Shown here: positions 9 to 20,016 of the stretch, piece after piece
How positions within the stretch are numbered: position 1 is the first letter of the stretch
How the letters are laid out: every line of letters begins with the position of its first letter
Assembly (NCBI GenBank): GCA_031370785.1
Contig: JANMQY010000093.1
Span: forward strand, 1-22,880
Length of the DNA stretch: 22,880 nt
Source of the DNA: Candidatus Eiseniibacteriota bacterium
GTDB lineage: Bacteria; Eisenbacteria; RBG-16-71-46
Direction of reading: 5' to 3'
The notes under the pieces: model-generated
Told to the model about the DNA's origin: nothing
Seen by the model: the letters and a program-made list of their open reading frames with translations, nothing else
Database searches by the model: none
Position numbers and translations under genes: made by a program

Positions 9-41
9 GCGAAAGGGCCGGTCTCTCGACCGGCCCCTCGC
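9..41 (-). terminator. Intrinsic terminator-like hairpin (possibly bidirectional)
   Basis: Minus strand reads GCGAGGGGCCGGUC-GAGA-GACCGGCCCUUUCGC-GUU: a perfect 9-bp core GGGCCGGTC/GACCGGCCC, a GNRA tetraloop and a short U-rich tail. On the + strand it directly follows CCACCA at 1-6. Confidence 0.65.
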
Positions 42-231
42 CATATTGGGTCTCTCGCGGGTACGACTCGCGAGGTGCGAGTCTCGGCTCGCCTCGGCCA
101 CCAGTTGTCCGGTGCGCCGACCCCCATGCCGCCCCAGTGCGGCTAAGATTGCGCTGCTTCACGATCCGGGCGTTGGAGTCCCCCGATCCCACAGACGCCC
201 AACCGATCCACAGCGCACTGTTCGCACGTCA
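42..231 (-). ncRNA. Candidate structured non-coding RNA (element B), family unassigned
   Basis: No credible ORF. Long hairpin at 150-217 (UGCGCUGU/GCAGCGCA, GGGCGU/ACGCCC) with G-U pairs on the minus strand, several further hairpins, and it ends at the 9-41 terminator. Shares collinear blocks with 19817-20015. The hairpins at ~53-92 pair better on the + strand, so strand is not certain. Confidence 0.4.
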
Positions 232-430
232 TCGTGATGCGGAGCGAAAAAAATCTGTACTGCAACCGCCCTGGCGTCTCGATGAGGTGTCTTGACCCGT
301 CCGCGGTGCCTTGCGGTGCGCCGGGGGAATGGCGCTGGTGCGGGCCCTCGCAACTGATGCGGGGGGGTATAGCTCGGGGACAGGCTCAAGAGTAGAATCG
401 CCGGCCGTATGATTGCAATGGCTAAAATGC

Positions 431-459
431 TCGCGCGCCGGCAAACGGCCCACTAGACT
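431..459 (+). promoter_or_regulatory. Putative sigma70-type promoter of tnaA (TCGCGC-N17-TAGACT)
   Basis: TAGACT at 454-459 lies 9 nt before the ATG, which has no Shine-Dalgarno. The same -35 hexamer and spacing occur upstream of trxB. Confidence 0.4.
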
Positions 460-468
460 CGCGATCCC

Positions 469-1866
469 ATGCGCTTCCCGGCTGAACCTTTCCGTATCAA
501 AGTGGTCGAACCGCTGCGCCGCGTCTCGCGCGAAGAGCGGGAGCGGCTGATCCGCGAGGCCGGGCTCAACATCTTCGCGGTCCCCGCCGACAGCATCTAC
601 GTCGACCTCCTGACCGACAGCGGCACGGCGGCCATGAGCGACAACCAGTGGGCCGGCCTGATGCTTGGCGATGAGTCCTACGCCGGGAGCCGCAACTTCT
701 ATCACCTCCAGGGGACGGTGCGCGACATCTTCGGGTATCGCCACGTGATCCCGACCCACCAGGGCCGCGTGGCCGAGAACCTGCTCTTCTCGACGGTGCT
801 GAAAAAGGGCGACGTCGTGCCGAACAACATCCACTTCGACACCACCCGCGCCAACGTCGAGCATCAGGGCGCAGAAGCGCTCGACCTCGTGATCGACGAG
901 GGCCTCGATCCGACGCTGCAGCATCCGTTCAAGGGAAACCTCGATCCGCTCAAACTCGATCGCGCGCTTACCGAGCTGGGTGCGGCGCGCGTCCCGTTGG
1001 TGATGATCACCGTGACCAACAACTCGGGCGGTGGGCAGCCGGTCTCGATCGCGAACGTGCGCGCGGTGCGCGAGGTGTGCAATCGGCACGGCGTGCCGCT
1101 GTTCTTCGACGCGTGCCGATTCGCCGAGAACAGCTGGTTCATCCAGCAGCGCGAAGCGGGATACGCGAACAAGCCGGTCGCAGAGATCGCGCGCGAGATG
1201 TTCTCGTACGGTGACGGCTGCACCATGAGCGCGAAGAAGGACGGGCTGGTCAACATCGGCGGGTTCCTCGCGCTCAACAACAGCGAGTGGGCCGAGCGCA
1301 TCACCAACCTGCTGATCCTGGTGGAAGGTTTCCCGACCTACGGTGGGCTCGCGGGCCGCGACCTCGAAGCGATCTCGCGCGGGCTGCGCGAAGTGCTGAA
1401 CGAAGACTACCTCGCGTTCCGCATCGGCCAGGTCGCCCAGCTCGGCGAGCAGCTCGACCGCGCCGGCGTGCCGATCGTGAAGCCGGTCGGCGGGCACGCG
1501 GTCTATCTCGATGCGTTGCGCTTCCTGCCGCAGGTGCCGCAGTCGCAGTACCCCGGCCAGGCGCTGGTGGTGGCGCTCTATCGCGAGTACGGAATTCGCG
1601 TGGTCGAGGTCGGATCCCTGATGTTCGCGCACAAGGACGCCCTCGGGAAGACGGTCTACCCCCGGCTCGAGCTGGTGCGGCTCGCGGTGCCGCGCCGCGT
1701 GTACACGACCGAGCACATGCGCTACGTGGCGGAATCGGTGATCGATCTCCATCGCCGCCGCGAGCAGATGAAGGGATTGCGGATCACATACGAGGCGCCG
1801 GTGCTCAGGCACTTCACCGTGCGGCTCGAAGAACTGACGGACGCCGAGGCGGCATGCCAACCCTGA
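469..1866 (+). CDS. tnaA: Tryptophanase (tryptophan indole-lyase), PLP-dependent beta-eliminating lyase, 465 aa
   Basis: Family motifs EPFRIKVVE, DLLTDSG, GDESYAGS, PTHQGR and PLP-lysine MSAKKD. Specificity residues match tryptophanase rather than tyrosine phenol-lyase: HFDTT (Asp, not Thr), VEVGS (not MERG), LRHFT (His, not Phe). Confidence 0.93.
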   Translation: MRFPAEPFRIKVVEPLRRVSREERERLIREAGLNIFAVPADSIYVDLLTDSGTAAMSDNQWAGLMLGDESYAGSRNFYHLQGTVRDIFGYRHVIPTHQGRVAENLLFSTVLKKGDVVPNNIHFDTTRANVEHQGAEALDLVIDEGLDPTLQHPFKGNLDPLKLDRALTELGAARVPLVMITVTNNSGGGQPVSIANVRAVREVCNRHGVPLFFDACRFAENSWFIQQREAGYANKPVAEIAREMFSYGDGCTMSAKKDGLVNIGGFLALNNSEWAERITNLLILVEGFPTYGGLAGRDLEAISRGLREVLNEDYLAFRIGQVAQLGEQLDRAGVPIVKPVGGHAVYLDALRFLPQVPQSQYPGQALVVALYREYGIRVVEVGSLMFAHKDALGKTVYPRLELVRLAVPRRVYTTEHMRYVAESVIDLHRRREQMKGLRITYEAPVLRHFTVRLEELTDAEAACQP

Positions 1867-2573
1867 ATCGCGGCTTCTCGCTCACGTGGCTCGGCCACTC
1901 CACGTTCAAGCTGGTGACGCGCGGCGCCAAGACCGTGCTGATGGATCCGTGGGTGGAGGGAAATCCTGCGTGTCCGAAGGACCAGAAGACCTTCGACAAG
2001 ATCGACATCATGACGATCTCGCACGGCCATGGCGACCATGCCGGCGATGCAGTCACGCTCGGCAAGAAGTTCAAGCCGACCGTGGTGTGCAACTACGAGA
2101 TGAGCCTGTACCTGATGCGCAAGGGCGTGCCGACCGTGGCGCCAATGAACAAGGGTGGCACGCAGGAGGTGGGCGGGATCAAGTTCACCATGGTGCACGC
2201 GGTGCATTCGAGCGGGATCGAGGACGGCGGCCAGATCCTCTATGGCGGCGAGCCGTGCGGATTCGTGCTCACGCTCGAAGACGGCACGCGCATCTACCAC
2301 GCCGGAGACACCGGGCTGATCCCCGACATGGCGCTGATCGCTGAGCTGTATCCGCCCGAGATCGTGCTGCTCCCGATCGGCGATCTGTACACCATGGGCC
2401 CGCGTGAGGCCGCGGTCGCGGCGCGCATGCTGAAGCCGAAGTACATCGTGCCGATGCACCACGGCACCTTCCCGGCTCTGACCGGCACTCCGGATGCGCT
2501 GCGCGACGAGCTCAAGAACTTCAGAGTGAGCGCGGAAGTGATCGCGCTCCGTCCGGGAGAAACGCTGAAGTAG
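1854..2573 (+). CDS. Metallo-beta-lactamase-fold metal-dependent hydrolase (UPF0173/YtkL-like), 239 aa
   Basis: WLGHS, DPW, SHGHGDH (HxHxDH), HAVHSS, YHAGDT and PMHH motifs. Start moved to ATG 1854 (GAGG upstream), overlapping the tnaA end by 13 nt. Confidence 0.88.
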   Translation: MPTLNRGFSLTWLGHSTFKLVTRGAKTVLMDPWVEGNPACPKDQKTFDKIDIMTISHGHGDHAGDAVTLGKKFKPTVVCNYEMSLYLMRKGVPTVAPMNKGGTQEVGGIKFTMVHAVHSSGIEDGGQILYGGEPCGFVLTLEDGTRIYHAGDTGLIPDMALIAELYPPEIVLLPIGDLYTMGPREAAVAARMLKPKYIVPMHHGTFPALTGTPDALRDELKNFRVSAEVIALRPGETLK

Positions 2574-2597
2574 GCCCGACGCCGCACCCGCGCGGCG

Positions 2598-3695
2598 TCA
2601 GCTCGCGAATACCGCCACGATGTCGTAGATCGTATGCACGGCGATGGACGCAGTCGTATTCGATCGGCGCCGGATCAGGCCGAGAAACAGCCCCATCAGC
2701 CCGACCACGATCATCCCGAACCATGAATACTGCACGTGGAGCGCGGCGAACAGCACTGCGGTCATCCCCAGCCCGAGGCGGGGCTGCAGCGCTCCGCGCA
2801 GCGTGATCTCTTCCCCGACGCCCGCGGTGATGCCGAGCATGATCACGCGGCCGAACCCGAGCCCGCGCGCCATTGATTCGTTGATGCGGTGATCGTTCTG
2901 CCAGAGCGCGGGGAACCAACGCTGCTGCGCCCAGTCCGCGCTGCTGTTGAGCGCGAGAATCGCAAGAACGCCAACGCAGATCATCCACACGTGCGCGAGC
3001 GAGATGCGCCTGAGCCCGAGTCGCTCGAGGGTCGCGGTGAGATCGCGGCGGATGAGATAGCCGACCGAGGCGAAGGCGAGCGCGAGATAGCCGACGACTT
3101 CGGCGCCGAACGAAACCCGGTCGAAGAACCCGGCCCTGTCGTCGAGCATCTCCTGCATCAGGTCCGGCGCCATGAAGTAGCCCGGCACCGCGAACAGCAG
3201 CCCCATGAGCACCAGCCGCGCGCTGAGGCGCAGGGTGTGCGAGCTGCGCTCGGTCCGGAACAGGAGCGACACCAACTCGTCGACGAAGGGGCGCACCACG
3301 GTCAGGAGTGAGACGAGCGCGGCGAAGATCGAAACGCCGATCGTGGCCATGCGCGCCGGGCCGCCGAGCTCCGACTCGCGAGCGAGGGTGACCAATGTCG
3401 CGAATCCGAGGCAGCCTCCGACCGGAACGAGCGCGCCGAGCAGCCAGTAGAACAGCGTCCAGCGCTCGTCCAGATCCGCGGCCTGGGCGGCCACGAACAG
3501 GCCGGCCAGCACCATCATGATGGACAGTTCCTGCGCGCCGATCAGCAGGCCGACCGTGCCGGCCACTCCAATGACGCATAGCCAGATGAGGAGGCCGCGC
3601 CGCAGGTCGGGAATTTGTGGCGTCTCATCGAACGGCGGTGTCTCGTCCTCGCGAACGGCCGGTGGAACGCTCGAGACTTGATTCGGCAGGTCCAT
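2598..3695 (-). CDS. CPBP/Abi (CAAX-type) intramembrane glutamic metalloprotease with N-terminal multi-TM extension, 365 aa
   Basis: EEITLR (EExxxR), FAALH (FxxxH) and HTIYD motifs; many hydrophobic helices. Confidence 0.85.
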   Translation of the reverse strand: MDLPNQVSSVPPAVREDETPPFDETPQIPDLRRGLLIWLCVIGVAGTVGLLIGAQELSIMMVLAGLFVAAQAADLDERWTLFYWLLGALVPVGGCLGFATLVTLARESELGGPARMATIGVSIFAALVSLLTVVRPFVDELVSLLFRTERSSHTLRLSARLVLMGLLFAVPGYFMAPDLMQEMLDDRAGFFDRVSFGAEVVGYLALAFASVGYLIRRDLTATLERLGLRRISLAHVWMICVGVLAILALNSSADWAQQRWFPALWQNDHRINESMARGLGFGRVIMLGITAGVGEEITLRGALQPRLGLGMTAVLFAALHVQYSWFGMIVVGLMGLFLGLIRRRSNTTASIAVHTIYDIVAVFAS

Positions 3696-3701
3696 CAGGC
3701 C

Positions 3702-3731
3702 AGCATAGTGTGCACCACCTCGGAGCGTCCA
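3702..3731 (-). promoter_or_regulatory. Putative leaderless promoter of the CPBP gene (TGGACG-N18-TATGCT-N6-ATG)
   Basis: TATGCT (3707-3702) lies 6 nt upstream of ATG 3695, with no SD, within the 38-bp divergent gap to moaD. Confidence 0.5.
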
Positions 3732-3733
3732 CC

Positions 3734-3979
3734 GTGACCATCATCGTCCTGTTCTTCGCGCAGGCGCGCGAATACGCGGGTATGTCCAGCGCTGTCCTCG
3801 AACTGCCGGAGCCGAGCCGCGTCTCGGACGCACTCGCGGCGCTCGGTCACGCGCATCCTTCGCTCGAGCGATTGTGGCCGCATCTGGCGATAGCGCTCGA
3901 TGGCCAGCTCGTCAGCCCCGATACGTTGATCCACGCTGGCGCGGAGCTCGCGCTGCTCCCACCCGTGAGCGGAGGCTAG
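3734..3979 (+). CDS. moaD: Molybdopterin synthase sulfur carrier subunit (MoaD/ThiS ubiquitin-like), 81 aa
   Basis: VLFFA N-terminus and C-terminal PPVSGG diglycine. GTG 3734 has GGAG at 3722-3725, and moaE lies nearby. Confidence 0.88.
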   Translation: MTIIVLFFAQAREYAGMSSAVLELPEPSRVSDALAALGHAHPSLERLWPHLAIALDGQLVSPDTLIHAGAELALLPPVSGG

Positions 3980-4585
3980 GTGCCGAAGGCGCGGCGCGCG
4001 TCGAAGTGGGAATTCCATGCGCTCACCCCCGGGCGATGGAAGGACCTGGTCGCGCTGTTCGGGCCACGCGGCGCGTGCGCCGGCTGCTGGTGCATGTTCC
4101 CGCGCCTGACCGGCTCGGAGTGGAAGACGCAGGGCGCGAGCAACCGGCGTGCGTTCGAGCGCATCGTCCGCGCCGGCGATCGACCCGGGGTGCTCGCTTA
4201 TGAGGCTGGGCGCGCGGTCGGCTGGGTCGCGGTCGCGCCGCGAGAGGTGTACCGGCGTTTCGAGCGCTCGCGCATCCTTCAACCGGTGGACAGAAAGCCG
4301 ACCTGGTCGGTGCCGTGCTTCTTCATCGATCGCACCCAACGCGGTCGCGGTCTCACCGTCGCACTCCTGCGCGCGGCGTGCATCTACGCCTCCTCGCAGG
4401 GGGCGTCGCGCATCGAGGGCTACCCGCTCGAGCCGGCCAGGCCGATGCCTGCAGCCTTCGCATGGTATGGCCTTGCCTCCACCTTCCGCGCGGCCGGCTT
4501 CCGCGAGGTGGCGAGGAGATCGCCGACGCGCCCGATCATGCGGCGCGAGCTGGGTCGCGCGTCGCGGAATGCTGCTCGTGGCTGA
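3980..4585 (+). CDS. GNAT-family N-acetyltransferase with N-terminal CxxCWC motif, 201 aa
   Basis: Acetyl-CoA motif A QRGRGLT, plus VGWVAVAPR, IEGYP and AGFREV. GTG start directly follows the moaD TAG, with GGAGG at 3971-3975. Confidence 0.82.
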   Translation: MPKARRASKWEFHALTPGRWKDLVALFGPRGACAGCWCMFPRLTGSEWKTQGASNRRAFERIVRAGDRPGVLAYEAGRAVGWVAVAPREVYRRFERSRILQPVDRKPTWSVPCFFIDRTQRGRGLTVALLRAACIYASSQGASRIEGYPLEPARPMPAAFAWYGLASTFRAAGFREVARRSPTRPIMRRELGRASRNAARG

Positions 4586-5000
4586 GCTGGTCCATGCCAC
4601 CATCGACTCCAAGCGCCTGACAGCCGAGGCGGCGCGGCCCGACTGCGGCGCGATCGTGCTGTTCCTCGGAACCACACGCGATCATCACGATGGTCGCCGG
4701 GTGACGCGGCTGAGCTACGAGGCGTACGAGCCGATGGCGCTCGCGGCACTCGAGAAGATCGAGCACGCGGCCGTCGAGCGCTTCGAGGTCACGTCGTGCC
4801 GGATCGTGCATCGGCTGGGAGAAGTTCCGCTCGCCGAGGCGAGTGTCGCGGTGGTGGTCGTCGCCACGCATCGCGGCCCGGCATTCGACGCATGTCGATT
4901 CGCGATGGACGAACTCAAGCGCGCGGTGCCGATCTGGAAGAAGGAGCATTTCGCCGAAGGCGGCGAAGGCTGGGTCGAGGGCACCAAGCTCGGATCGTAG
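4569..5000 (+). CDS. moaE: Molybdopterin synthase catalytic subunit, 143 aa
   Basis: GAIVLFLGTTR, LSYEAYEPMA, HRLG, HRGPAF and LKRAVPIWKKE motifs. Start ATG 4569 overlaps the GNAT end by 17 nt. Confidence 0.92.
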   Translation: MLLVAELVHATIDSKRLTAEAARPDCGAIVLFLGTTRDHHDGRRVTRLSYEAYEPMALAALEKIEHAAVERFEVTSCRIVHRLGEVPLAEASVAVVVVATHRGPAFDACRFAMDELKRAVPIWKKEHFAEGGEGWVEGTKLGS

Positions 5001-6176
5001 CTACTCGAGCAGCGCGAGCGCCTGGAGCGCTTCGCCGCGAACCGACTCGTCCGCATCCCCGGCTGCTCGGGCGAGCTTGGTGACGATCTCCTCGACCGAG
5101 CATTCCGCGCTCTCGGCGCCGAGCCTGCGGCCGATCTCGCCGAGCGCCCATGCGGCGTGGCCGCGCACCAGCGGCGATGGATCGGACTCGAGCGCACGCG
5201 CCAGCGCCGGCACCGCGCCGGCCTCGGCACGGTTGCCGAGCGCAATGCACACGTTGCGCAGGAAGCCGTCCCGCTGGGCGCGGCGGATCGGGCTCTGCGC
5301 GAATACCTGGGCGAAGGTGGGCTCGTCGAGCTCGAGGAACTTTTCCAGCGACCAGCCCTCGAGCGCGCGGGCGTGAAGCCTGGCCTCGCGACCTGGCGGC
5401 GCGAAGCGGTTCCACGGGCACACCTCCTGACACACGTCGCAGCCGAAGACCCACTCACCGATCAGCGGGCGCAGCTCGGGCGCGATCGTCCCCTTGTGCT
5501 CGATCGTCAGGTACGAGATGCAGCGCCGCGCGTCCACCTGGTAGGGCGCGACGATGGCGCGCGTCGGGCACGCCTCGAGGCAGCGTGCGCAGGTGCCGCA
5601 GTGCTCGCGCTCCAGGGGCGGGTCCGCGACCAGCTCGCGGTTGACCAGCATCTCGCCGAGCAGGAACCACGAGCCGAGCGTCTGCGAGAGCAGGCCGGAG
5701 TGCTTGCCGATCCAGCCGAGCCCGGCACGCTCCGCCCAGCCGCGCTCGAGGATGGCGCCGGTGTCCGCGTACCAGAGCGCGCGCGATCCCGGAAGCGCCT
5801 CATCCTCGATGAAGCGCTCGAGCATGCGCAACCGGTCGCGCATGATGCGGTGATAGTCCTCGCCGCCCGCGTAGCGCGCGATGCGTCCCACTCGCGCATC
5901 GAGCCCTGCATCGCGCTCCGGCGGAGGGCAGAGGGCGACGCACACCACGGATCTCAGATCCCTGAGCAGCCTCTCGGGATTGGCGCGGCGCTCGCGATGC
6001 TCGGGCTCGGCGAGGTAGGCCATCTCGCCGTGGCGCCCGGCGGCGAGCCATTCTTCGAAGTGACGCGCCGCCTGGAGCGGAGCAACGCTCGCGACCGCGA
6101 CCGCTTCGAAACCCAGCTCGAGCGCGCGTTCCTTGATGCGCCGCGTGGCGAGGGCGGCATCGGGGGCGTCGCTCAT
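5001..6176 (-). CDS. queG: tRNA epoxyqueuosine(34) reductase (cobalamin/2x[4Fe-4S]) with C-terminal HEAT-like repeats, 391 aa
   Basis: ARYAGGEDYH, DTGAILER, AGLGWIGK, CGTCARCLEACPT, CISYLTIE and FGCDVCQEVCPWN motifs; HEAT-like DPSPLVRGHAAWALG. Confidence 0.93.
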   Translation of the reverse strand: MSDAPDAALATRRIKERALELGFEAVAVASVAPLQAARHFEEWLAAGRHGEMAYLAEPEHRERRANPERLLRDLRSVVCVALCPPPERDAGLDARVGRIARYAGGEDYHRIMRDRLRMLERFIEDEALPGSRALWYADTGAILERGWAERAGLGWIGKHSGLLSQTLGSWFLLGEMLVNRELVADPPLEREHCGTCARCLEACPTRAIVAPYQVDARRCISYLTIEHKGTIAPELRPLIGEWVFGCDVCQEVCPWNRFAPPGREARLHARALEGWSLEKFLELDEPTFAQVFAQSPIRRAQRDGFLRNVCIALGNRAEAGAVPALARALESDPSPLVRGHAAWALGEIGRRLGAESAECSVEEIVTKLARAAGDADESVRGEALQALALLE

Positions 6177-6202
6177 CGCAGCGGGCTTGACCCCTGATGA
6201 AG

Positions 6203-7171: not shown

Positions 7172-7248
7172 CACGATCCCTTCTACACCGCGGCGGAGTG
7201 AACGAGTCCAGGCGGTTGCGGCGGCGGCGCCAAACAGGCGGGCGGCGG

Positions 7249-8940: not shown

Positions 8941-8966
8941 GGGAGCCCCGGTGGAAATCGTGCGGC

Positions 8967-9953: not shown

Positions 9954-9996
9954 GGGAAACTCCTCATGAACAATCGGTTCGAGTAGCGCGGCGCGG

Positions 9997-10025
9997 ATTC
10001 TAGTCCAGCCGCAGCCCAAGCGCGA
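9997..10025 (-). promoter_or_regulatory. Putative promoter of the trxB operon (TCGCGC-N17-TAGAAT)
   Basis: TAGAAT at 10002-9997, a 17-nt spacer, and TCGCGC at 10025-10020. Confidence 0.45.
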
Positions 10026-10183
10026 GACGGTTCGGAGCAGGCGTTGAGATGCGCAACGCCCCCGGCAGGATCATGGGTGAGGTCTTCCCAGCACCCGGGG
10101 CATCGGCTATTCTGGGACCCGAAGCGCAAGGGCCCCTCCCGCTGCGCGCCGATACAACGAGGCCGAGCGGGAGTGAGAATGTG

Positions 10184-11734
10184 ATGCTGCGTGATGTCGT
10201 ATTCCTGATCTGTCTTCCTGGCGCCGTGCTGTTCAGCTCCTCGTCGGCGTCGGCCGCAATCGCGGTGCCGAGCAACTTCGTCAGCGAATCGATCGTCACC
10301 GGGCTCAACCTACCCAACAGCCTGGCGTTCATCCCCGATGGAAGGATCGTCTACACCGAGCAGATGACCGGGCGGGTGCGACTGGTGGTGAATGGGCACG
10401 TCGCACCGACCATCATGCTCACCGTGCCTTCGCTCAACACCAGCGGCTACGAGCGCGGGCTGCAGGGCGTGGCGATCGATCCCGGGTGGCCCTCGCGACC
10501 GTACGTCTATCTCGCCTACGACCGGATCGGGGATTTCATCCGGGTGGTGCGTTACACGGCGACCGGAGACGTGAACAGTCCGACCGGCGAGAACCTTCCG
10601 CTCACCGATCCCGCCATTCTCATCGACAACATTCCCGACAACGCAAACAATCACAACGCGGGCTGCCTGCGATTCTCACCCGACGGCTCGCTGTTCGTGA
10701 GCGTGGGCGAGGACGCGGACATGTGTGGTGCGCAGGATCTCGCGCAGCTCAAGGGCAAGCTGCTCCGACTCCGGGTCGCGGATCTGCCTCCCGGCCCGCG
10801 AACCGCTTTCCGCGCGCAGATCATTCCGCAGGACAACCCGATCGCATCGCCCGACAGCAACACCAGCCTGGTGTGGGCGAGTGGTCTGCGCAATCCGTGG
10901 CGCTTCCAGATCGATCCGGCCACTCTGGTCGCCTATGTCTCCGATCCGGGCGAAGCCACATATGAAGAGATCGACGAGGTCTCGGGCGGAAGCAACCAGG
11001 GCTGGCCATGGCGCGAGGGGCCGATGGTCGTGCCCATGCCTTCGTGCCCGGAGCCCGGAGGAAGCGGATCGCAGCAGTTCAGCTCGCCGATCGTCTCGGT
11101 GCTGCACGACGGAAGCGCGCAGGCGATCGTCACCGCCGGCGTCCGGCGCACAGTCCCGGGGGCCTCGAGCAACTGGCCCAACACCTACAACGGGATGGTG
11201 TTCTACGGCGACTACTATGCTGGCTACCTGCGCCGCGTGCAGAAGAACGGCGGCACATGGTGGCCGGTCGCCGCGGCGCCGGGGCAGCCCGACGCGACCA
11301 ACTGGGCGACCGGCCTGAAATCGGAATCCGACTTCGTCACCGGGCCAGACGGCAGTCTCTACTGGGTGCGCCAGTTCGACGACACGTTCTCCGGCGCGAC
11401 CGGATCGCTGGGGCGGATTCGCTACACCGGGCCCCCGCTGAGTGCTGCCTCGACGAACGGCGATCTCGCGCTCAGCGTGTCTCCCAATCCCAGCACCGCA
11501 GCGGCGCGGCTCGGGTTTTCGCTCGCACAGGCGGGAAACGTGCGCCTCGAGATCTTCGATCTGCTCGGACGCCGAGTGCGGACGCTGATCGATGGTCCGC
11601 GCGAAGAGGGACGCACCGAGATCGTGTGGGATGGGTCGGATGAGCGGGGCGGTCGAGCGCGCCCCGGACTCTACCTGGCGCGCATCCACTGCAACGGCCG
11701 CGCGAGTGTCGCGCACCTGCTTCGAGTCGAGTAG
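10184..11734 (+). CDS. Secreted glucose/sorbosone dehydrogenase (GSDH, PQQ-dependent sugar dehydrogenase-like) beta-propeller with C-terminal FlgD-Ig/T9SS-like domain, ~516 aa
   Basis: Signal peptide; LAFIPDG, ERGLQGVAIDP, NHNAG.L.FSPDG, GLRNPWRF, EEID and N.GWP.REG motifs. C-terminus SPNP...FSL...V.LEIFDLLGRRVRTL...WDG.DE.G....G.Y. Start ATG 10184 or GTG 10181 after GGGAG. Confidence 0.85.
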   Translation: MLRDVVFLICLPGAVLFSSSSASAAIAVPSNFVSESIVTGLNLPNSLAFIPDGRIVYTEQMTGRVRLVVNGHVAPTIMLTVPSLNTSGYERGLQGVAIDPGWPSRPYVYLAYDRIGDFIRVVRYTATGDVNSPTGENLPLTDPAILIDNIPDNANNHNAGCLRFSPDGSLFVSVGEDADMCGAQDLAQLKGKLLRLRVADLPPGPRTAFRAQIIPQDNPIASPDSNTSLVWASGLRNPWRFQIDPATLVAYVSDPGEATYEEIDEVSGGSNQGWPWREGPMVVPMPSCPEPGGSGSQQFSSPIVSVLHDGSAQAIVTAGVRRTVPGASSNWPNTYNGMVFYGDYYAGYLRRVQKNGGTWWPVAAAPGQPDATNWATGLKSESDFVTGPDGSLYWVRQFDDTFSGATGSLGRIRYTGPPLSAASTNGDLALSVSPNPSTAAARLGFSLAQAGNVRLEIFDLLGRRVRTLIDGPREEGRTEIVWDGSDERGGRARPGLYLARIHCNGRASVAHLLRVE

Positions 11735-11749
11735 CCGCGAACCAGCAGT

Positions 11750-11790
11750 GAGGCGCCCGCGCGTGTGAAGGCGCGGGCGCCTCGTTCTTT
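11750..11790. terminator. Terminator hairpin between convergent genes
   Basis: Perfect 13-bp stem GAGGCGCCCGCGC/GCGCGGGCGCCTC (11750-11762/11771-11783), followed by GTTCTTT on the + strand. Confidence 0.75.
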
Positions 11791-11804
11791 CCCCTTCGGA
11801 TCGT

Positions 11805-12971: not shown

Positions 12972-12982
12972 CGAAGGCTCCT

Positions 12983-14179
12983 CTAGTCCACGCGCCGCAG
13001 CGCCTGAACGATGCGCAGCTGCGAGGCCTGCCAGGCCGGAATCAATCCGCTCACCGCGCCGACCAGGGTCGCGATGGCGATGCCGGTGATCACGGTTGCC
13101 CAGTGCACGCTCATCGGAGGCAGGAAGCCGCCGAAGTTGAAGCCGGTGCCCTCGATCGCCCATTTCGCGAGCAACGAGCCGAGTATGCCGCCGCCCATAG
13201 TGATCACCGCCGCCTCGGCGAGCACGATGCCGAAGATGATGCCCTCGGTGAAGCCGAGGGTCTTGAGCACTCCGATCTCGCCGGTGCGCTCGCGAATCGC
13301 CATCACCATGGTGTTGGCCGCGACCAGCAGGATCGCGAACACCACCGCCAGGCCGATCACGCGCAGCACGAACGGAATGTTCCCGTACATGCTCACGAAT
13401 CCGGCCTGGAAGGCCTGCTCGCTCTCGGTGCGCGTGGCCGCTCCGGAATTCTCGAACATCTCGTCGACCTGCTTGGCGATGTCGGCAGCGCGACCCGGGT
13501 TGCTGAGGTCGAGGATGTACACGCCGACCAGGGCGCGTCCGCCCATGCCCTTCTGGTCGAGGTATTTCCAGTGGAAGAACATCGTCTCCTCACCGATGCT
13601 GCGCTTCTTCGCATGGTAGACGGCGCGAATGGTAAACGGCCACTCGCCGGGATAGATCGTGCCGGCGAGGGTGATGGTCTGCCCGAGCTTCCATCCCATC
13701 TTGGTCATGAGCTTCTGCCCGATGACGCACGCCGTCTGCTCGGTCATGTACGAGGCCAGCCGGGAAGGCATTCCCTCGGGCAGGGTCATCGTGGCCTGCG
13801 GCGGCGAAGCTTCGACGATCTCGATGTCGTTGGCGTAGATCGGAAAGAAATTCTCGTCGTCCACCGCGAACTGCGCGAAGAAATTGTGCGGGTCCTTCGG
13901 GTCCTGCGCGCCGAACCAGTTCTGGATCGCGACGCGCTTGACGCCGGGCACCGCGGCGATGCGGCTGCCGTAGGAGATCGGCAGCGGAAAGATCAGCGAG
14001 ATCGCGTTGCGCGAGATCAGGCGGGTTTCGCTGCCGACCTTGATCGCCTCCTGCAGCGTGTCAAGGACTCCGCCGAGCGTGCAGTACAGGAACAGCGCCA
14101 CCGTGACGCTCAGCATCGTGAGAATGGTGCGCCGCTTGTTGCGGCCGAGGTTGACCAGAATCAGGTTGAGGACGCTCAC
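12983..14179 (-). CDS. ABC exporter permease (MacB/FtsX-like), 398 aa
   Basis: NL.RNKRRTILT, NTMVMAIRERTGEIGVLKTLGF and SGLIPAWQAS motifs; GTG start at 14179. Confidence 0.88.
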   Translation of the reverse strand: MSVLNLILVNLGRNKRRTILTMLSVTVALFLYCTLGGVLDTLQEAIKVGSETRLISRNAISLIFPLPISYGSRIAAVPGVKRVAIQNWFGAQDPKDPHNFFAQFAVDDENFFPIYANDIEIVEASPPQATMTLPEGMPSRLASYMTEQTACVIGQKLMTKMGWKLGQTITLAGTIYPGEWPFTIRAVYHAKKRSIGEETMFFHWKYLDQKGMGGRALVGVYILDLSNPGRAADIAKQVDEMFENSGAATRTESEQAFQAGFVSMYGNIPFVLRVIGLAVVFAILLVAANTMVMAIRERTGEIGVLKTLGFTEGIIFGIVLAEAAVITMGGGILGSLLAKWAIEGTGFNFGGFLPPMSVHWATVITGIAIATLVGAVSGLIPAWQASQLRIVQALRRVD

Positions 14180-14193
14180 GTTGCCACCCCGCT

Positions 14194-14865
14194 TCAGTTG
14201 GACAGCACGCCCTTGTCGAGATGCAGCACCCGCGTCGCGCGCTCGGCAGCGTGCGGGTCGTGCGTCACCATGACGATGGTCTTCTTGAATTCCCGGTTGA
14301 GGCGCCCCAGCAGCTCCAGGATTTCCTCGCCCGACTTGCGATCCAGGTCGCCGGTCGGCTCGTCGGCGAGCAGCACCGACGGATCGCTGACCACCGCGCG
14401 CGCGATCGCCACGCGCTGCTCCTGCCCGCCCGAGAGCTGCCGCGGGAAGTGCTTGAGCCGGTCGTCGAGGCCTACCAGCTCGAGCGCGGTCTTCGCGCGC
14501 TTCTTTCGCTCGGCGCCACTCATCTTCACCAGCAGCAGCGGCAGCTCCACGTTCTGCAGCGCGGTCAGCACCGGAATCAGGTTGTAGAGCTGGAAGATGA
14601 ATCCGATGTTCCGCGAGCGCCACTTGGCGAGCTTTGAGCCCTTGAGTGTTGCGATGTTGGTTCCGCCGACGATCAGCTCACCGGAGGTGGGCTGGTCGAT
14701 GCCGCCGATCAGGTTCAACAGCGTCGTCTTTCCGCTGCCCGACGGCCCCATGAGCGCGACGAACTCGCCGTCCGCGATCTCGAGCGAGAGCCCGTCGAGC
14801 ACCGGGATCTGCTGCCGGTCTCGCACGTAGGTCTTGCGTACGTTTCGAACCTGCACGGCCCCCAT
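14194..14865 (-). CDS. ABC transporter ATP-binding protein (LolD/MacB-type), 223 aa
   Basis: Walker A GPSGSGKT, signature LSGGQEQR, Walker B LLADEPTG and H-loop VTHD. ATG 14865 follows GGGAGG. Confidence 0.93.
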   Translation of the reverse strand: MGAVQVRNVRKTYVRDRQQIPVLDGLSLEIADGEFVALMGPSGSGKTTLLNLIGGIDQPTSGELIVGGTNIATLKGSKLAKWRSRNIGFIFQLYNLIPVLTALQNVELPLLLVKMSGAERKKRAKTALELVGLDDRLKHFPRQLSGGQEQRVAIARAVVSDPSVLLADEPTGDLDRKSGEEILELLGRLNREFKKTIVMVTHDPHAAERATRVLHLDKGVLSN

Positions 14866-14897
14866 GAACGCCTCCCGTCCGCCGGATCGGCGGATCG

Positions 14898-16091
14898 TTA
14901 TGAGCCCACGACGCGGACCCGCGCGCCGTTCCTGAGATCGGCCGGCGGATGCACGACCACGCTCTCGCCGCCGGAGAGTCCACCTCTCACTTCGATGTGA
15001 TCTTCTCGCGCGGGACCCAGGTCCACGCTGCGAGCCACCAGCTTCCCGTTCTCCACCACCCACACGCGTGCGCCGCTTCCGTCCTGCACCACCGCTGCCG
15101 CCGGCACCATCACGCGGCGCGGCGCGCTCGCGGTCGCGGTGTGCTCCGGATCATTCACGAACAGGACCTTGGCTCCCATCTCGGGCAGGATCCGCGGGTC
15201 GTGGTCGAGGATCGCGACCTTGACCTGCACCGTCGCCTTCTGCCGGTCCGCGGTCGGCACCACCTGGCGCACACGTCCGCTGAACGACGTGTCGGGGTAG
15301 GCGTCGAGCGTGATGCGCGCCCCCTGGTTGCCACGGATCTGCGCGATGTACGCCTCGTTGACGTCGACCTCGACCTCGAGCGTTCCGAGATCGGCCATGG
15401 TCGCGATCGCGGTCCGGGTCAGTCCTCCGCCCGCGCCCGAGGGCGCGACGATCTCGCCGACCTCTGCGTCCTTGCGCAGCACAGTGCCATCGAAAGGCGC
15501 GCGCACCCGCGTGTTCTCGAGACTGGCCTCGGCGAGCCTGGTCTGCGCGTGCGCGCTCGCCTGCTGCGAGCGCAGCACGTCGAGCCGGGTCTGCGCGTTC
15601 TCCAAGTCCACGTCGGCGGTGAGGCCCTGGCGGCGCAGGTCCTGCGCGCGCGCCAGGTCGCGCGTCGCCTGGCGAAGCTGCGCGTCGAACTGCGCTTCCG
15701 CCGCGCGGGCAACCGCCAGCTGCGCTTCGTAGTCGGCACTCTCGATCGTCGCGATCACCTGGCCCTTGCGGACGCGCGAGCCTTCGTGTACCGGGAGGGT
15801 GGCGAGGCGGCCGAGAATCTTGGCCGACACCGACGCCCGGGTCCGCGCGACGACGTAGCCGTTCGCGCTGATGCCGGCGCTCGACAGCGTGCCGCCTCCG
15901 GTCGCGCTGACCGTCGCGGTCCTGACCGCGATCGCGCGTCTCGGGGCGAGCACGAAGAACCACACCGCAGCCGCCGCGACCAGGAGCGCGAGCACGACGA
16001 GGATCGCGACCCCACGACCCGCACCGCCCCCGCTCGGAGCGTCTTCGTCGCGGCGAATGCGAAGGCTGGAAAGATCCGGAGTGGTGGACAT
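14898..16091 (-). CDS. Periplasmic adaptor / membrane fusion protein (MacA/HlyD family), 397 aa
   Basis: N-terminal TM anchor, lipoyl half V.EGSRVRKGQVIA, alpha-helical hairpin, VRAPFDG, VDVNE and LPEM motifs. Confidence 0.9.
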   Translation of the reverse strand: MSTTPDLSSLRIRRDEDAPSGGGAGRGVAILVVLALLVAAAAVWFFVLAPRRAIAVRTATVSATGGGTLSSAGISANGYVVARTRASVSAKILGRLATLPVHEGSRVRKGQVIATIESADYEAQLAVARAAEAQFDAQLRQATRDLARAQDLRRQGLTADVDLENAQTRLDVLRSQQASAHAQTRLAEASLENTRVRAPFDGTVLRKDAEVGEIVAPSGAGGGLTRTAIATMADLGTLEVEVDVNEAYIAQIRGNQGARITLDAYPDTSFSGRVRQVVPTADRQKATVQVKVAILDHDPRILPEMGAKVLFVNDPEHTATASAPRRVMVPAAAVVQDGSGARVWVVENGKLVARSVDLGPAREDHIEVRGGLSGGESVVVHPPADLRNGARVRVVGS

Positions 16092-16119
16092 GGGGCCCGA
16101 GGGTTGAGGTGAGCCGGGA

Positions 16120-16149
16120 ACCTTAAGGAGTGGAACGGGATGGGGTCAA
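16120..16149 (-). promoter_or_regulatory. Putative sigma70 promoter of the ABC exporter operon (TTGACC-N18-TAAGGT)
   Basis: TTGACC at 16149-16144 and TAAGGT at 16125-16120, 28 nt before the ATG at 16091. Confidence 0.5.
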
Positions 16150-16350
16150 GCGGACCGCCGCTCGCGCGTAGACCCCTGCCTGCGTTTCCGGCGACCCTGC
16201 TCAGGGCCAGGGGTTCGGCGCCGGTTTGGCCGTGGCCGGAAGGGAGATGGATCGGTATCCTGATGACTCTGCTAACGCCGCCTGGATAGCGACGTCCATG
16301 GATTCCGCGGGCGCGGCCGCGCCTCGAGTTCCCTCGACCCGGAGGATGCC

Positions 16351-18138
16351 ATGAAGCTCCCGCGCATAGTTGCCCTTGCACTGACCGTTCTCGTCGCTGC
16401 CTCGAACGCGCGCATCACAGTGGCTGCCGCGCCGCCGCCTGCGTCCCCGGCGATCTTCGATTACAGCACCGTGATCGACATCAACACGATTCGTATGGGG
16501 GTGACGAACTTCGGCTCGTTCGCCAGCGACTTCGCGACCGGGAGCTCGGGGCTCGAATTTCCGAAAGGCAGCGGCAAGACCGCGGTCTACAGCGCGGGGT
16601 TGTGGCTCGGAGCTCACGTCGGTGGCGGCACACGGGTCGCGATCGCCGAGTATTCGAGCGAGTTCCAGCCGGGCGCAATGCTTGGTGGCTTTCCCGGCGA
16701 TCCGAACCTGGCGGAATACAAAGTGTACGGTCTCTACCGCTTCTATCCGGACGATGTCTCCCGGGACGCGGCGCTCGCGGACTACACGTTCGGCGCGGTA
16801 CCTCATGGTGCCCCGCCCGTGCAGGTGCAGCCGGATGGCTCACTCGACATCCTCGGCGACGAGATGCTGTGGGCGGTCTACAACGATGCCAATGCTACAT
16901 CCCACAACAATCGGGCCGGTAGCACGCTTCCGCTCGGTGTCGAGGTTCAACAGACCACGTTCGCCTTCAATCGATCCGGCCCTCTCGGGAACACGGTCTT
17001 CGTTCGCTTCAAGATTCTGAATCGAGGCTCGAACTCTCTCGACGACATGTATGTCGGGCTGTGGAGTGATCCTGATGTCGGCGGCGCCAACGACGACCTC
17101 GCGGGCTGCGACACGACGCGCTCGCTCGGCTACGCGTACAACGCCACGAACAGCGATCTGGTCTATGGATCATCGCCGCCCGCGGTCGGCTATCTGCTGC
17201 TGCGGGGCCCGACCCCGGGCAGCGGCGTGCCGCTTGGCATGACCGCGTTCACGGACTACATCAATGGAACGGACCCCACGAACTTTTTCCAGGTCTACAA
17301 CCGGTTGCAGGGCCTGCACGCGGATGGCAGCGAGATCATCAACCCGACCACAGGTCTGCCCACGCATTACATGCATTCGGGCGACCCCGTCACAGGAACG
17401 GGCTGGCTCGATAACGCGGCCTCGGATCGCCGACTGCTGCTCGCCTCGGGTCCATTTCACATGGCGCCTGGCGATGGGCAGGTGATCGACGGCGCGATCG
17501 TCATTGGTCAGGGCAGCAGCCGACTCTCATCGGTGACGGCGATGCGCTTCAATGCCGACGTTGTGCGCGGCTTCTACGCAGACGACCCGACGCCCACCCT
17601 CGCATCACTCGTGGACGCGCACGCCGAGCCCGACCGCGTGACCCTCTCGTGGTATGGCGCCGACGTCGCGGGCCGCTTCGTGACCATCGAGCGCAGGACT
17701 GCGGAGATCGGTTGGAGCGCGGTCGACTCTCGATTTGCGGACGGTTCCGGATCGATCGCGTTCGAAGATCGCAACGTGATCGCGGGTGTGCGCTACGGTT
17801 ATCGAATCGCGGTGCGCACCGACGGTGCGGACCGCTACTCCGCCGAGACCTGGATCGAAGTGCCGGTGGAAGCGGGCCTCTCGCTTGCGGGATTCCGCCC
17901 GAATCCCGCCGCTGGCGAGGTGTTCGTCGAGTTCTCGCTCCCATCCAGCGGATCCGCGTCACTGCGAGTCTTCGACATCGCGGGTCGCGCAGTCGTCATG
18001 CGCGAAGTCGGTGAACTCGGCGCGGGCCGCCATCAGATCCGACTCGACGGCGGCACGGCGCTCAAGGCAGGCGCGTACGTGATGCAGATTTCGCAGGGCG
18101 GTCGAATGGTGACGCGCAGAGGCGTGATCGTTCGCTGA
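16351..18138 (+). CDS. Secreted protein of unknown function with C-terminal FlgD-Ig/T9SS-type sorting-like domain, 595 aa
   Basis: GGAGG SD and signal peptide. Motifs GLEFPKGSGK...AGLW.GA, LGDEMLW.VYND, GVEVQQT, YVGLWSDPDVG...DD and D.R..L.SGPF..APG. A PTPTLASLV linker precedes an FN3-like domain and RPNP...FSLP...L.VFDIAGR.V. Confidence 0.8.
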   Translation: MKLPRIVALALTVLVAASNARITVAAAPPPASPAIFDYSTVIDINTIRMGVTNFGSFASDFATGSSGLEFPKGSGKTAVYSAGLWLGAHVGGGTRVAIAEYSSEFQPGAMLGGFPGDPNLAEYKVYGLYRFYPDDVSRDAALADYTFGAVPHGAPPVQVQPDGSLDILGDEMLWAVYNDANATSHNNRAGSTLPLGVEVQQTTFAFNRSGPLGNTVFVRFKILNRGSNSLDDMYVGLWSDPDVGGANDDLAGCDTTRSLGYAYNATNSDLVYGSSPPAVGYLLLRGPTPGSGVPLGMTAFTDYINGTDPTNFFQVYNRLQGLHADGSEIINPTTGLPTHYMHSGDPVTGTGWLDNAASDRRLLLASGPFHMAPGDGQVIDGAIVIGQGSSRLSSVTAMRFNADVVRGFYADDPTPTLASLVDAHAEPDRVTLSWYGADVAGRFVTIERRTAEIGWSAVDSRFADGSGSIAFEDRNVIAGVRYGYRIAVRTDGADRYSAETWIEVPVEAGLSLAGFRPNPAAGEVFVEFSLPSSGSASLRVFDIAGRAVVMREVGELGAGRHQIRLDGGTALKAGAYVMQISQGGRMVTRRGVIVR

Positions 18139-18148
18139 GCGGACCATC

Positions 18149-18196
18149 GACGGCGACGTCCGCATGGAATTTCCGGGAGTCGCCGTCTTGCGTTTT
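18149..18196 (+). terminator. Terminator-like hairpin after the secreted-protein gene
   Basis: GACGGCGAC/GTCGCCGTC 9-bp stem (18149-18157/18179-18187), followed by TTGCGTTTT; the loop is large. Confidence 0.5.
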
Positions 18197-18216
18197 GCGC
18201 AGAGCGCCCCTAGACT
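18188..18216 (+). promoter_or_regulatory. Putative sigma70 promoter of ferredoxin (TTGCGT-N17-TAGACT)
   Basis: Hexamers at 18188-18193 and 18211-18216, 17 nt apart. Confidence 0.5.
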
Positions 18217-18292
18217 TTGCCCTCGCTTTGAAATGCCGCTCACGCGCCTGGGCCCATCGCCCGCGCGTGGCAGAATCAGTCGGGAGGGTTGC

Positions 18293-18532
18293 ATGCCGTT
18301 CGTCATTGCCGAGCCGTGCATCGGGGTGAAGGACAAGTCGTGCGTCGAGGTGTGCCCGGTGAACTGCATCTACGAGGGCGAGGATCAGTACTACATCCAT
18401 CCCGACGAGTGCATCGACTGCCAGGCCTGCGAAGCCGCGTGTCCGGTACAGGCGATCTTCCCGGACAACGGCGTGCCCGAAAAGTGGAAGCCGTTCATCG
18501 ACAAGAACCGGACGCACTTCGAGAACACCTGA
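18293..18532 (+). CDS. fdxA: 7Fe ([3Fe-4S]+[4Fe-4S]) dicluster ferredoxin, FdxA type, 79 aa
   Basis: C-x7-C-x3-CP (CIGVKDKSCVEVCP) plus CIDCQACEAACP; ATG follows GGGAGG. Confidence 0.88.
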   Translation: MPFVIAEPCIGVKDKSCVEVCPVNCIYEGEDQYYIHPDECIDCQACEAACPVQAIFPDNGVPEKWKPFIDKNRTHFENT

Positions 18533-18558
18533 TCTCCGTGCATGCCCGAACGCACCTG

Positions 18559-18591
18559 GAGGCGGCGCGCCACGCGCTGCCTCTTTCGTTT
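18559..18591 (+). terminator. Intrinsic terminator between the ferredoxin and HD genes
   Basis: 11-bp stem GAGGCGGCGCG/CGCGCUGCCUC with one G-U pair, a 3-nt loop, then UUUCGUUU. Confidence 0.7.
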
Positions 18592-18600
18592 GAGGACGCC

Positions 18601-19170
18601 ATGACCGAAGCCACGCTTCCGAGCCGCGAGCAGGCGCTGGCCCTGGTGCACGAGTGGATCCAGAACCCGGGCCTTCGCAAGCATTGCTACGCGGTCGAGG
18701 CCGCGATGCGCGCCTATGCGAGAAAACTCGGGGGTGACGAAGAGCGCTGGGGCCTGACCGGGCTGATCCACGACTTCGACTGGGAGCGTCATCCCGACGC
18801 GGCGCGCCACCCGATGCAGGGAGTCGAGGTGCTGCGCTCGCTCGGCTGGCCCGAAGACGTGTGCCGCGCGGTGCTGGGGCACGCGACCTACAGCGGCGTG
18901 CCGCGCGACACGCCGATGGCGAAGGCGCTGTTCGCGTGCGACGAGCTGTGCGGGTTCCTGGTCGCGTGCGCGTTGATCATGCCCGACCGATCGCTCGAGA
19001 AGGTCGAAGTCGCCTCGGTGCTCAAGAAGATGAAGCGCGCCGACTTCGCGCGGAACGTCAACCGCGACGACATCACCACGGGTGCGGCGGAGCTCGGCGT
19101 CGAGCTGAGCGAGCACATCGCGTTCACGCTCGAAGCGCTGCGCGGCGCGCGCGCGGATCTGGGGCTGTGA
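18601..19170 (+). CDS. HD-superfamily metal-dependent phosphohydrolase (COG2316-like), 189 aa
   Basis: LRKHC.AVEA.MR, GLIHDFD, HP..G..VL, GH, ACDEL.G, V.KK.K...FA..VNR motifs; GAGGA SD. Confidence 0.85.
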   Translation: MTEATLPSREQALALVHEWIQNPGLRKHCYAVEAAMRAYARKLGGDEERWGLTGLIHDFDWERHPDAARHPMQGVEVLRSLGWPEDVCRAVLGHATYSGVPRDTPMAKALFACDELCGFLVACALIMPDRSLEKVEVASVLKKMKRADFARNVNRDDITTGAAELGVELSEHIAFTLEALRGARADLGL

Positions 19171-19790
19171 GCGTGATGCTCATCGCAGCGATCGCAGACA
19201 GCGCACGGCACGTCGGCGAACTCGCCAGGCAGGCTCACGTACTGGGGGCGAGCGAGGATCTCGAATCATGGCACGAGTTCTACCTCATGGTAGGAACGGC
19301 CGCTGTCACGCTCGTTGGTCTGCTGTTCGTCTCGCTCTCGTTCCATCTCGACGTTCTGCTTCACGAGCACCACGCACATCTGCTGGCGGTGGCGCGGCAG
19401 GCGATGCTGAACTTCGTTGGAGTGCTGATCATCTCGCTCAGTTTTCTGGCACCCGGGATGACGGCGCGGCCGCTGGGCATGAACCTGTTCATGATCTCAG
19501 CAATCTTCCTGGTGTTCGGGGTTAGTGCCCTGTCACGCGCGTTGCGCCAGCGCGACTCGAGCCCGCACTCCGCCTTCGTCCTCCGCCGCTCGCTGATCAG
19601 CATCATCGGCTTCGCGGCTACCGCGTGGGTGGGCTTCCGGATGTTTTCGCATCGCGACCCGACCGAGGCCTACTGGCTGATCGGACCCATGTGCATGATT
19701 CTGGGCAACGCGGTCGGCACCGCGTGGGATCTGCTGGTGAGGGTCGGGCGGCTCAAGCAGGAAATCGCGGCGAACGACTCGAAGTCGTGA
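19167..19790 (+). CDS. Hypothetical integral membrane protein (~5 TM), ~207 aa
   Basis: GTGA overlap with the HD stop (alternative start ATG 19176). W..F....G.AA.TL.GLLFV.LS N-terminal helix and C-terminal NAV..AW.LL; codon usage looks coding. Confidence 0.7.
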   Translation: MSVMLIAAIADSARHVGELARQAHVLGASEDLESWHEFYLMVGTAAVTLVGLLFVSLSFHLDVLLHEHHAHLLAVARQAMLNFVGVLIISLSFLAPGMTARPLGMNLFMISAIFLVFGVSALSRALRQRDSSPHSAFVLRRSLISIIGFAATAWVGFRMFSHRDPTEAYWLIGPMCMILGNAVGTAWDLLVRVGRLKQEIAANDSKS

Positions 19791-19809
19791 GCCCACGCAG
19801 CACCGTGCG

Positions 19810-20016
19810 GTGCCCGCTCTCGCGACGCATCTCGGCACCCCAAAGCCTGACGCCGACCGAGGTGCATTCCCGAAATCCGGGAGGTCGTCCCCAATCGGCG
19901 TCGGCGTACCGCTGCTTCTTCTGGCCGGCGGTCCCCCTTAGAGGTTCCGCACTCGGCCGCGCCCATGGAATCCATGGGCTCTGGTCGACGCCGCAGCGAA
20001 ACTGCCCGCGACGTCT
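19810..20016 (-). ncRNA. Candidate structured non-coding RNA (element A), family unassigned
   Basis: Lies in the 312-bp gap between convergent genes, with TTGACC-N17-TCCAAT upstream. Stems containing G-U pairs on the minus strand: GACGUCGCGG/CUGCGGCGUC, GGCCG-GCGG-CCUC/GGGG-CCGC-CGGCC and GACGCCGAUUGGGG/CCUCGGUCGGCGUC. Confidence 0.45.

Follow-up and report, generated by a model that had tools for sequence, protein, structure and literature searches.

6S RNA forms a single rod with a closing stem between its 5′ and 3′ ends and a central bubble, and sponges of the CsrB/RsmZ type carry many A(N)GGA motifs in their loops. Other small RNAs (sRNAs) rely on a seed: unpaired C-rich motifs are the working seed of RsaE (PMC2790875) and of sX13 (PMC3771888). 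Here we describe two RNAs, A and B, encoded 20 kb apart on the minus strand of a 22,880-nt stretch from a Candidatus Eiseniibacteriota bacterium (the window), which is one whole contig (JANMQY010000093.1; G000:C5) of a 3.44-Mb, 68% G+C, 100%-complete assembly. Judged from their sequences and those of relatives, A and B are very probably stand-alone sRNA genes, each with its own promoter, a conserved fold on the minus strand, no conserved reading frame and no co-oriented gene downstream.

RsaE of Staphylococcus aureus and the UCCC-motif sRNAs are stand-alone and Hfq-independent and carry an unpaired C-rich motif. B likewise has UCCCC/CCUCC motifs that are predicted to be unpaired, in a genome where Hfq was not detected, but it has no sequence or Rfam match, is longer, and has as its best-conserved part a separate 68-nt hairpin. 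In sX13 of Xanthomonas, C-rich loops act on G-rich motifs close to start codons and Hfq is dispensable; B would resemble it in this, as well as in the G+C-rich host and the stable stems. The C-rich loops of sX13, however, cap its three stems, whereas those of B belong to a 5′ domain that evolves fast, and the apex conserved in B is G-rich. Like the CsrB/RsmZ-type sponges, A and B are stand-alone multi-hairpin RNAs with a terminator in a CsrA-bearing genome. We rejected membership of the Csr/Rsm sponges, as there is no array of A(N)GGA loops (0.7–1.1 per RNA) and GGA is near the shuffled level. A is similar in size to 6S RNA and folds as four hairpins, and the sole match to the 6S family (RF00013) in the genome is on another contig, at 75.5 bits against a cut-off of 46.4.

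No other family examined accounts for the two RNAs. The Rfam check of the window gave no match on A or B, in agreement with the earlier suggestion of a new family, and Rfam 15 at gathering score matched neither element in 12 homologous loci (6 of B, 6 of A). The order of the blocks CGCUG, GGGGGAC, UGGGG, ACCUCG and GAGAG in the window copies resembles that of the c-di-AMP (ydaO/yuaA) riboswitch RF00379, but A and B differ from it in that their later blocks are unconserved. RF00379 had 0 matches genome-wide at E≤10 and none in the window (cut-off 38 bits), and this riboswitch lies in the 5′ leader of a co-oriented gene, while the next gene downstream is convergent in homologous loci. For the signal recognition particle (SRP) RNA, RF00169 and RF01854 find a true copy on another contig (74.7 and 86.7 bits), and A and B score nothing; the letters GAAGCAG in B recall the SRP loop. 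Transfer-messenger RNA and RNase P RNA also have their genome copies on other contigs, and Y RNA was set aside as no TROVE protein was found in the genome. We found no published description of A or B, though large motif catalogues in supplements could contain them.

The two RNA genes and their distribution

RNA A and its parts are placed in the window as follows.

20016 to about 19838, minus strand: RNA A, about 180 nt, four tandem hairpins, 5′ end placed from the promoter
20051–20023, minus strand: RNA A promoter, with −35 TTGACC (20051–20046), 17-nt spacer and −10 TCCAAT (20028–20023)
19986..20015, minus strand: hairpin P1, two stems, a bulge and a variable loop, from individual folds of 19 homologues and pair counts
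19961..19979, minus strand: hairpin P2, GCCCAY...RUGGGC, 98% of cells paired, 3 of 6 pairs compensatory
19923..19958, minus strand: hairpin P3, the most conserved part of A
19842..19905, minus strand: hairpin P4, long, with a variable interior and a U-tail at its end

The TTGAC of the −35 element is invariant in all 19 aligned A homologues, with a 17-nt spacer, and is present in 54 of 55 distinct upstream regions from genome and metagenome loci; the commonest −10 among homologues is TGGAAT. In the aligned homologues the promoter is followed by about 180 nt that close in a U-tailed hairpin, and the A model match spans 19837–20016 in the window. Folding of the window copy has a z of −4.69, reached by 0 of 200 shuffles. 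When the 19 sequences were aligned with MAFFT, 88% of cells paired and 13 of 39 pairs were changed on both sides, a count that 0 of 500 shuffles reached, with slid controls at 32–48% paired. A larger alignment (A5) of 64 distinct rows, 5 of them antisense, gives 29 of 39 pairs changed on both sides, a figure that leans to the model because the alignment was fitted to it. P3 is laid out as GGCCG, a 3-nt bulge, GCGG, a 2×2 purine loop and a CCUC/GGGG apex; the apex is near-fixed in most genera, and one genus has other pyrimidine/purine stems instead. P4 is an intrinsic terminator in most homologues, but its tail in the window copy is no longer than UUU.

RNA B is larger, and its parts are the following.

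About 383 to 9, minus strand: RNA B unit, about 370 nt
418–389, minus strand: RNA B promoter, with −35 TTGCAA (418–413), 18-nt spacer and −10 TACTCT (394–389)
218..383, minus strand: B 5′ domain, length roughly kept and sequence not, with repeated C-rich motifs UCCCC / CCUCC
217 to 150, minus strand: B core, a 68-nt hairpin closed by a stem of 8 bp, its internal loop GGAU/UGAA rich in purines and its middle stem variable
128..143, minus strand: small hairpin 3′ of the core, in a subset of homologues, read from the sequences
41–9, minus strand: terminator-like G+C hairpin ending B, with a short U tail and a z of −5.67

The sequence-only reading had bounded B at 230 to 52, which is too short at the 5′ end. 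It had also pointed to a TTG hexamer upstream of the first GACGU in both elements; this is the true conserved −35 in A, but in B it is missing even in the two closest homologues, and the conserved B promoter lies about 155 nt further upstream. With that promoter at 418–389, the B unit starts at about 383 and closes with the terminator-like hairpin at 41–9. In 21 of 31 homologues the pattern TTG[CA], 17–18 nt, YANNNT precedes the apex by 186–249 nt, compared with 3 of 31 on the opposite strand and 0.6 expected from shuffles. A promoter-scan tool found no promoter at either the A or the B site; such a simple scan comes out empty because it demands a closer match to TATAAT, and conservation was used instead.

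Conservation in B centres on this core and not on the 180 nt first outlined. The B core has 31 invariant columns in 20 homologues (z −3.5), 96.7% of its cells are paired, and its apex, UGYGRGAUCGGGGGACUCC, is near-invariant. Six of its 23 pairs are compensatory, which, like the 13 of 39 in A, places the covariation within each element beyond both controls. Many core pairs swap between G-C and G-U or between G-U and A-U and would mismatch on the plus strand, which fixes the minus strand for B and bears out the strand argument first made from a single G-U pair. The 5′ domain is unalignable beyond close kin. A GGCCGG..CCGGCC hairpin similar to the B terminator was found by pattern in 11 of 31 homologues, and this hairpin may also serve the convergent gene.

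Coding explanations fared poorly. One-base indels and invariant letters both speak against a coding role for the B core. Among the homologues, only 3 of the 19 for A and 7 of the 22 for B have open reading frames (ORFs) of at least 8 codons with a Shine-Dalgarno-like site, and their positions and frames vary; a small peptide was rejected because no ORF is shared among homologues. The next gene downstream of both A and B is convergent, no co-oriented gene follows, and each RNA has a promoter and a terminator of its own, as a stand-alone gene does. It is very improbable, in our judgment, that A and B are instead cis elements of their neighbours (a lyase leader, or a 3′ element of the LON-domain or polymerase gene) or hairpins that act at the level of DNA. 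The neighbours are indeed conserved, with a convergent LON-domain gene in 22 of 28 B loci, a divergent lyase gene in 20 of 28 and a polymerase III alpha gene upstream of A in 20 of 31 loci. However, the wobble pairs fit better with transcription from the strand that does not encode the lyase and LON proteins, each RNA has its own conserved promoter, and B persists where a hydrolase gene replaces the lyase gene (7 of 28 loci). The neighbours also persist without the RNA: three relatives have the polymerase gene directly beside the convergent gene, A being absent from the junction, and in family genomes without a B match the LON gene is closely followed by a lyase or hydrolase gene, with no B, at 10 of 20 LON loci.

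We take the group that carries A and B as one family within Candidatus Eisenbacteria. DNA searches of 60 relatives gave strong matches (E below 1e-6) to B in 19 genomes and to A in 18, all in this family. Model searches covered 150 genomes sampled across the phylum, 59 of them family members, and found B in 24 of the 59 (one degenerate, at 25 bits) and A in 30 of the 59, with no credible match to either model outside the family in the sample. Two B-model matches outside it (32 and 26.6 bits) were dropped, as they lie inside predicted coding frames, and three weak A-model matches outside it had E of 0.07–0.1. Only 17–31 candidates per genome were scored in these searches, so the absence of A or B rests on synteny checks. 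The A pattern was also found at 41 metagenome loci. A and B occur independently, some genomes having A only and others B only, and their homologues are nearly always single-copy and syntenic. The model search gave two A copies in each of two relatives (G092:C143:28698-28885 and 35402-35588; G032:C14 and C9). Neither element has a further copy in its own genome by blastn or nhmmer, which rules out a dispersed repeat, and a mobile or viral origin was rejected with 0 pattern matches in viral contigs for A or B. Lineage-restricted sRNAs are common, and A and B are dispensable in many relatives; what they provide is two uncatalogued, family-restricted RNA families with promoters, folds and search models.

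Relationship between RNA A and RNA B

The sequence-only reading took A and B for two diverged copies of one ~200-nt RNA. The sequence blocks on which it relied are present at their coordinates, and conservation, folds and promoters uphold its description of both stretches as structured, minus-strand, non-coding and stand-alone. The copy relationship was not supported: the consensus folds differ (four tandem hairpins in A, one long hairpin within a ~370-nt unit in B), there is no reciprocal model match, the 3′ blocks are unconserved and the two RNAs occur independently. Likeness between A and B was borderline: lenient gaps let 30 and 44 of 1000 dinucleotide shuffles reach the score, and strict gaps 709 and 340.

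The blocks themselves behave differently in the two sets of orthologues (19 of A, 31 of B). CGCTG[CT]GG is kept in 1 A and 22 B orthologues, GAAGCAGCG in 1 and 21, GCACCTCG in 1 and 3, and CGCGAGAG in 0 and 4, while GGGGGAC is found in 9 of 19 and 31 of 31. The helix CGCUGY/GCAGCG, proposed for both, is real and conserved in B, but in A these letters fall in P1 and in a single-stranded linker. The apparent likeness arises because the A copy in the window contains, by coincidence, words resembling those of B that 1 of 19 A orthologues has. As a null, 900 intergenic windows of the genome were taken; they were delimited with a crude gene caller, and some of their DNA is coding. Against this null, the A copy in the window resembles B with p of 0.02 under lenient and 0.08 under strict gaps, and A orthologues compared with B cores have a median p of 0.26.

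Covariance models agree with this. The B model scored at best 17.8 bits on 20 A loci and 2 other loci, with no match on P3, and the A model at best 9.6 bits on 21 B loci. A profile search with the B profile had no A sequence in its top 30, and in the search with the A profile the best B sequence came 9th, behind null windows, with E of 35.

A narrower version, in which A and B are paralogues of ancient origin and have only a GYGGRA...GGGGRAC hairpin module in common, appears improbable. GYGGRA and GGGGRAC are present in both, within a GG(C/G)CG...CG(G/C)CC helix; the mean z of A with B cores is 0.85, compared with 0.08 for reversed and 0.10 for complemented controls, over 380 pairs that are not independent; and the two RNAs share strand and neighbourhood, lying 17–35 kb apart in 6 relatives. 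These likenesses are set against the failure of reciprocal covariance-model and profile searches and the median p given above, and also against a different pairing register, a different −35 consensus and independent presence. We regard the paralogy of A and B as largely refuted, and a tempting but unsupported link is thereby removed.

Candidate modes of action

On balance, we favour the reading that A and B are two independent sigma-70-type sRNA genes of one Candidatus Eisenbacteria family, 20 kb apart only through conserved gene order, and acting in trans. They would do so without Hfq, which was not found in their own 100%-complete genome. For B, we tentatively propose, by analogy with RsaE and sX13, that the unpaired C-rich motifs of the 5′ domain would pair as a seed with G-rich ribosome-binding (Shine-Dalgarno) sites and block initiation, and that the near-invariant hairpin could be a protein-binding or processing/stability module. 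With less confidence still, we propose that A is also a trans regulator whose working part would be P3, acting through the pyrimidine-rich strand of its apex or through protein binding.

To count the C-rich motifs of B, 9 of the 31 homologues were set aside because their promoter is weak or distant. Of the 22 that were kept, 21 carry UCCCC, CCCCC or CCUCC within the first 60 nt, mostly in predicted unpaired positions, and 2 carry the G-rich mirror motif. The background for the C-rich motifs is 11% in the genome, 16% in intergenic DNA and 31% in 72 promoter-downstream 60-mers. In the window they lie at 381–374 and 367–361, and predicted folds often place such motifs in the loop of a hairpin. 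In a relative, the 16S 3′ end reads CACCTCCTTT, which we counted in favour of C-rich pairing. Pairing with or mimicry of rRNA was rejected, the longest words shared with the 16S gene and 1.5 kb downstream being 9–10 nt, as in shuffles. A search for an antisense target of the B apex returned 17 genome matches of 11–12 nt, with none singled out, and a conserved C-rich loop motif was not seen in A.

Metatranscriptomes gave a weak hint of expression. Four of the 10 runs listed for B, found with B as query, were examined. Runs X1 and X2 hold long contigs that evenly cover all 20 kb and were treated as DNA. Runs X3 and X5, from two studies, hold short contigs wholly on B (153–354 and 125–366), which include part of the 5′ domain, stop short of the predicted start at about 383 and are unstranded; they fit the longer B boundary.

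Several observations weigh against two trans-acting sRNA genes. Both RNAs are absent from the syntenic site in many relatives. A strand-specific transcript of A or B was not seen in the four runs, which are biased by the B query and two of which look like DNA, and A is without cover in X3 and X5, though we do not take this as evidence. Alignment A5 of RNA A had been fitted to the model, the shuffle control of the pair counts in A and B ignores relatedness, and the A copy in the window has a poor U tail. With regard to pairing, a long conserved single-stranded seed was not seen in A; in B the C-rich motifs are of low complexity, so that a dinucleotide shuffle alone predicts 13.6 of 22 against the 21 of 22 observed; and conservation in B peaks in the hairpin rather than in the supposed seed, unlike in typical seed-driven sRNAs.

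The conserved hairpin also invites other explanations. One, to which we give perhaps a minor share of belief, is that one or both RNAs are protein decoys, for example of a solo CsrA, with the invariant apex of B as the putative binding site. CsrA is encoded in 83 of 89 family genomes and FliW was not found in the own genome, which makes RNA antagonists of CsrA plausible; in addition, the B core has 3.3 GGA compared with 2.0 in shuffles, and the invariance of bulges and loops suggests recognition by shape. One study reports that Eisenbacteria CsrA homologues are seldom predicted functional by its model (PMC13443453), which could mean altered specificity. On the other hand, A(N)GGA motifs are scarce, with 0.09 in each B core and 1.1 in each A, predicted folds leave only about one GGA per RNA unpaired, and CsrA is near-universal in the family while the RNAs are patchy. 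As a separate observation, CsrA at L242:1501-1659 has no flagellar gene evident among the ORFs of its locus, and CsrA scores about 91 bits in nearly all of the 83 of 89 genomes.

B might also be a self-contained switch that hides or exposes the seed, either because the invariant GGGGGA apex forms a pseudoknot or kissing loop with C-rich 5′ motifs of the same RNA or because a small molecule binds the core; this seems to us doubtful, at about the level of the shared-module paralogy. The first C-rich motif of the window copy is a near-exact complement of the apex, and the motifs and apex keep a roughly fixed distance (−35 to apex, 186–249 nt), but the duplex energies of apex and 5′ domain in 22 homologues are no better than with shuffled 5′ domains, and the invariant G-run of the apex cannot show covariation. 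Neither GGA counts nor duplex energies favour the decoy or the switch. A combination, in which B is bipartite, its near-invariant, shape-recognised hairpin of tandem purine loop and G-rich apex docking a protein or ligand and gating an array of fast-evolving anti-Shine-Dalgarno loops, with A perhaps as a second, distantly related module, is a little less credible again. If true, it would make B an Hfq-free, switchable global translation regulator of an undescribed kind.

Under the favoured reading of two independent sRNA genes, B joins a C-rich domain that drifts to a hairpin that is hyper-conserved. Its genome encodes CsrA, whereas Hfq, Ro60 (TROVE) and FliW were not detected there, and B offers a concrete test of RNA regulation in such lineages.

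Neighbouring genes and the wider genome

The genes immediately upstream of the two RNAs are these.

20103..22877, minus strand: upstream neighbour of A, DNA polymerase III alpha-type (PF07733, PF17657, PF14579, PF01336)
469..1866, plus strand: divergent neighbour of B, beta-eliminating lyase of the tryptophanase / tyrosine phenol-lyase type (PF01212)

We infer that the polymerase gene beside A is DnaE2-like. A second polymerase III alpha gene, at G000:C22:20077-22062, has 71% identity to that of the window over 671 aligned residues and runs into the G-rich end of its contig. On the other side, an HD-domain gene converges on A in 24 of 31 loci; the window encodes on the plus strand, at 19173–19790, a membrane protein without a Pfam match, which in some relatives sits between the HD-domain gene and A. 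In one further genome (L219), the space between the polymerase and membrane genes holds an A promoter and then a hairpin-rich stretch that is A-like by eye; the A model barely detects it, with only the last hairpin scoring, at 14.5 bits.

The lyase gene has a −10-like TAGACT (454–459, plus strand) 9 nt ahead of its ATG, and many homologues have a similar site, which suggests a leaderless or near-leaderless transcript that would start back-to-back with the B promoter. In relatives a LON-domain gene converges on B; in this assembly that gene stops at a contig edge (G000:C90:1-579), so C90 may lie next to the beginning of the window, perhaps separated from it by other DNA.

Elsewhere in the genome, a tRNA-SeC gene is present on another contig. 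Within the window, 10049–11734 and 16351–18138 on the plus strand encode two proteins with C-terminal FlgD-Ig / sorting-type domains, probably secreted; it is in the second of them (16351–18138) that reads from a near relative differ most.

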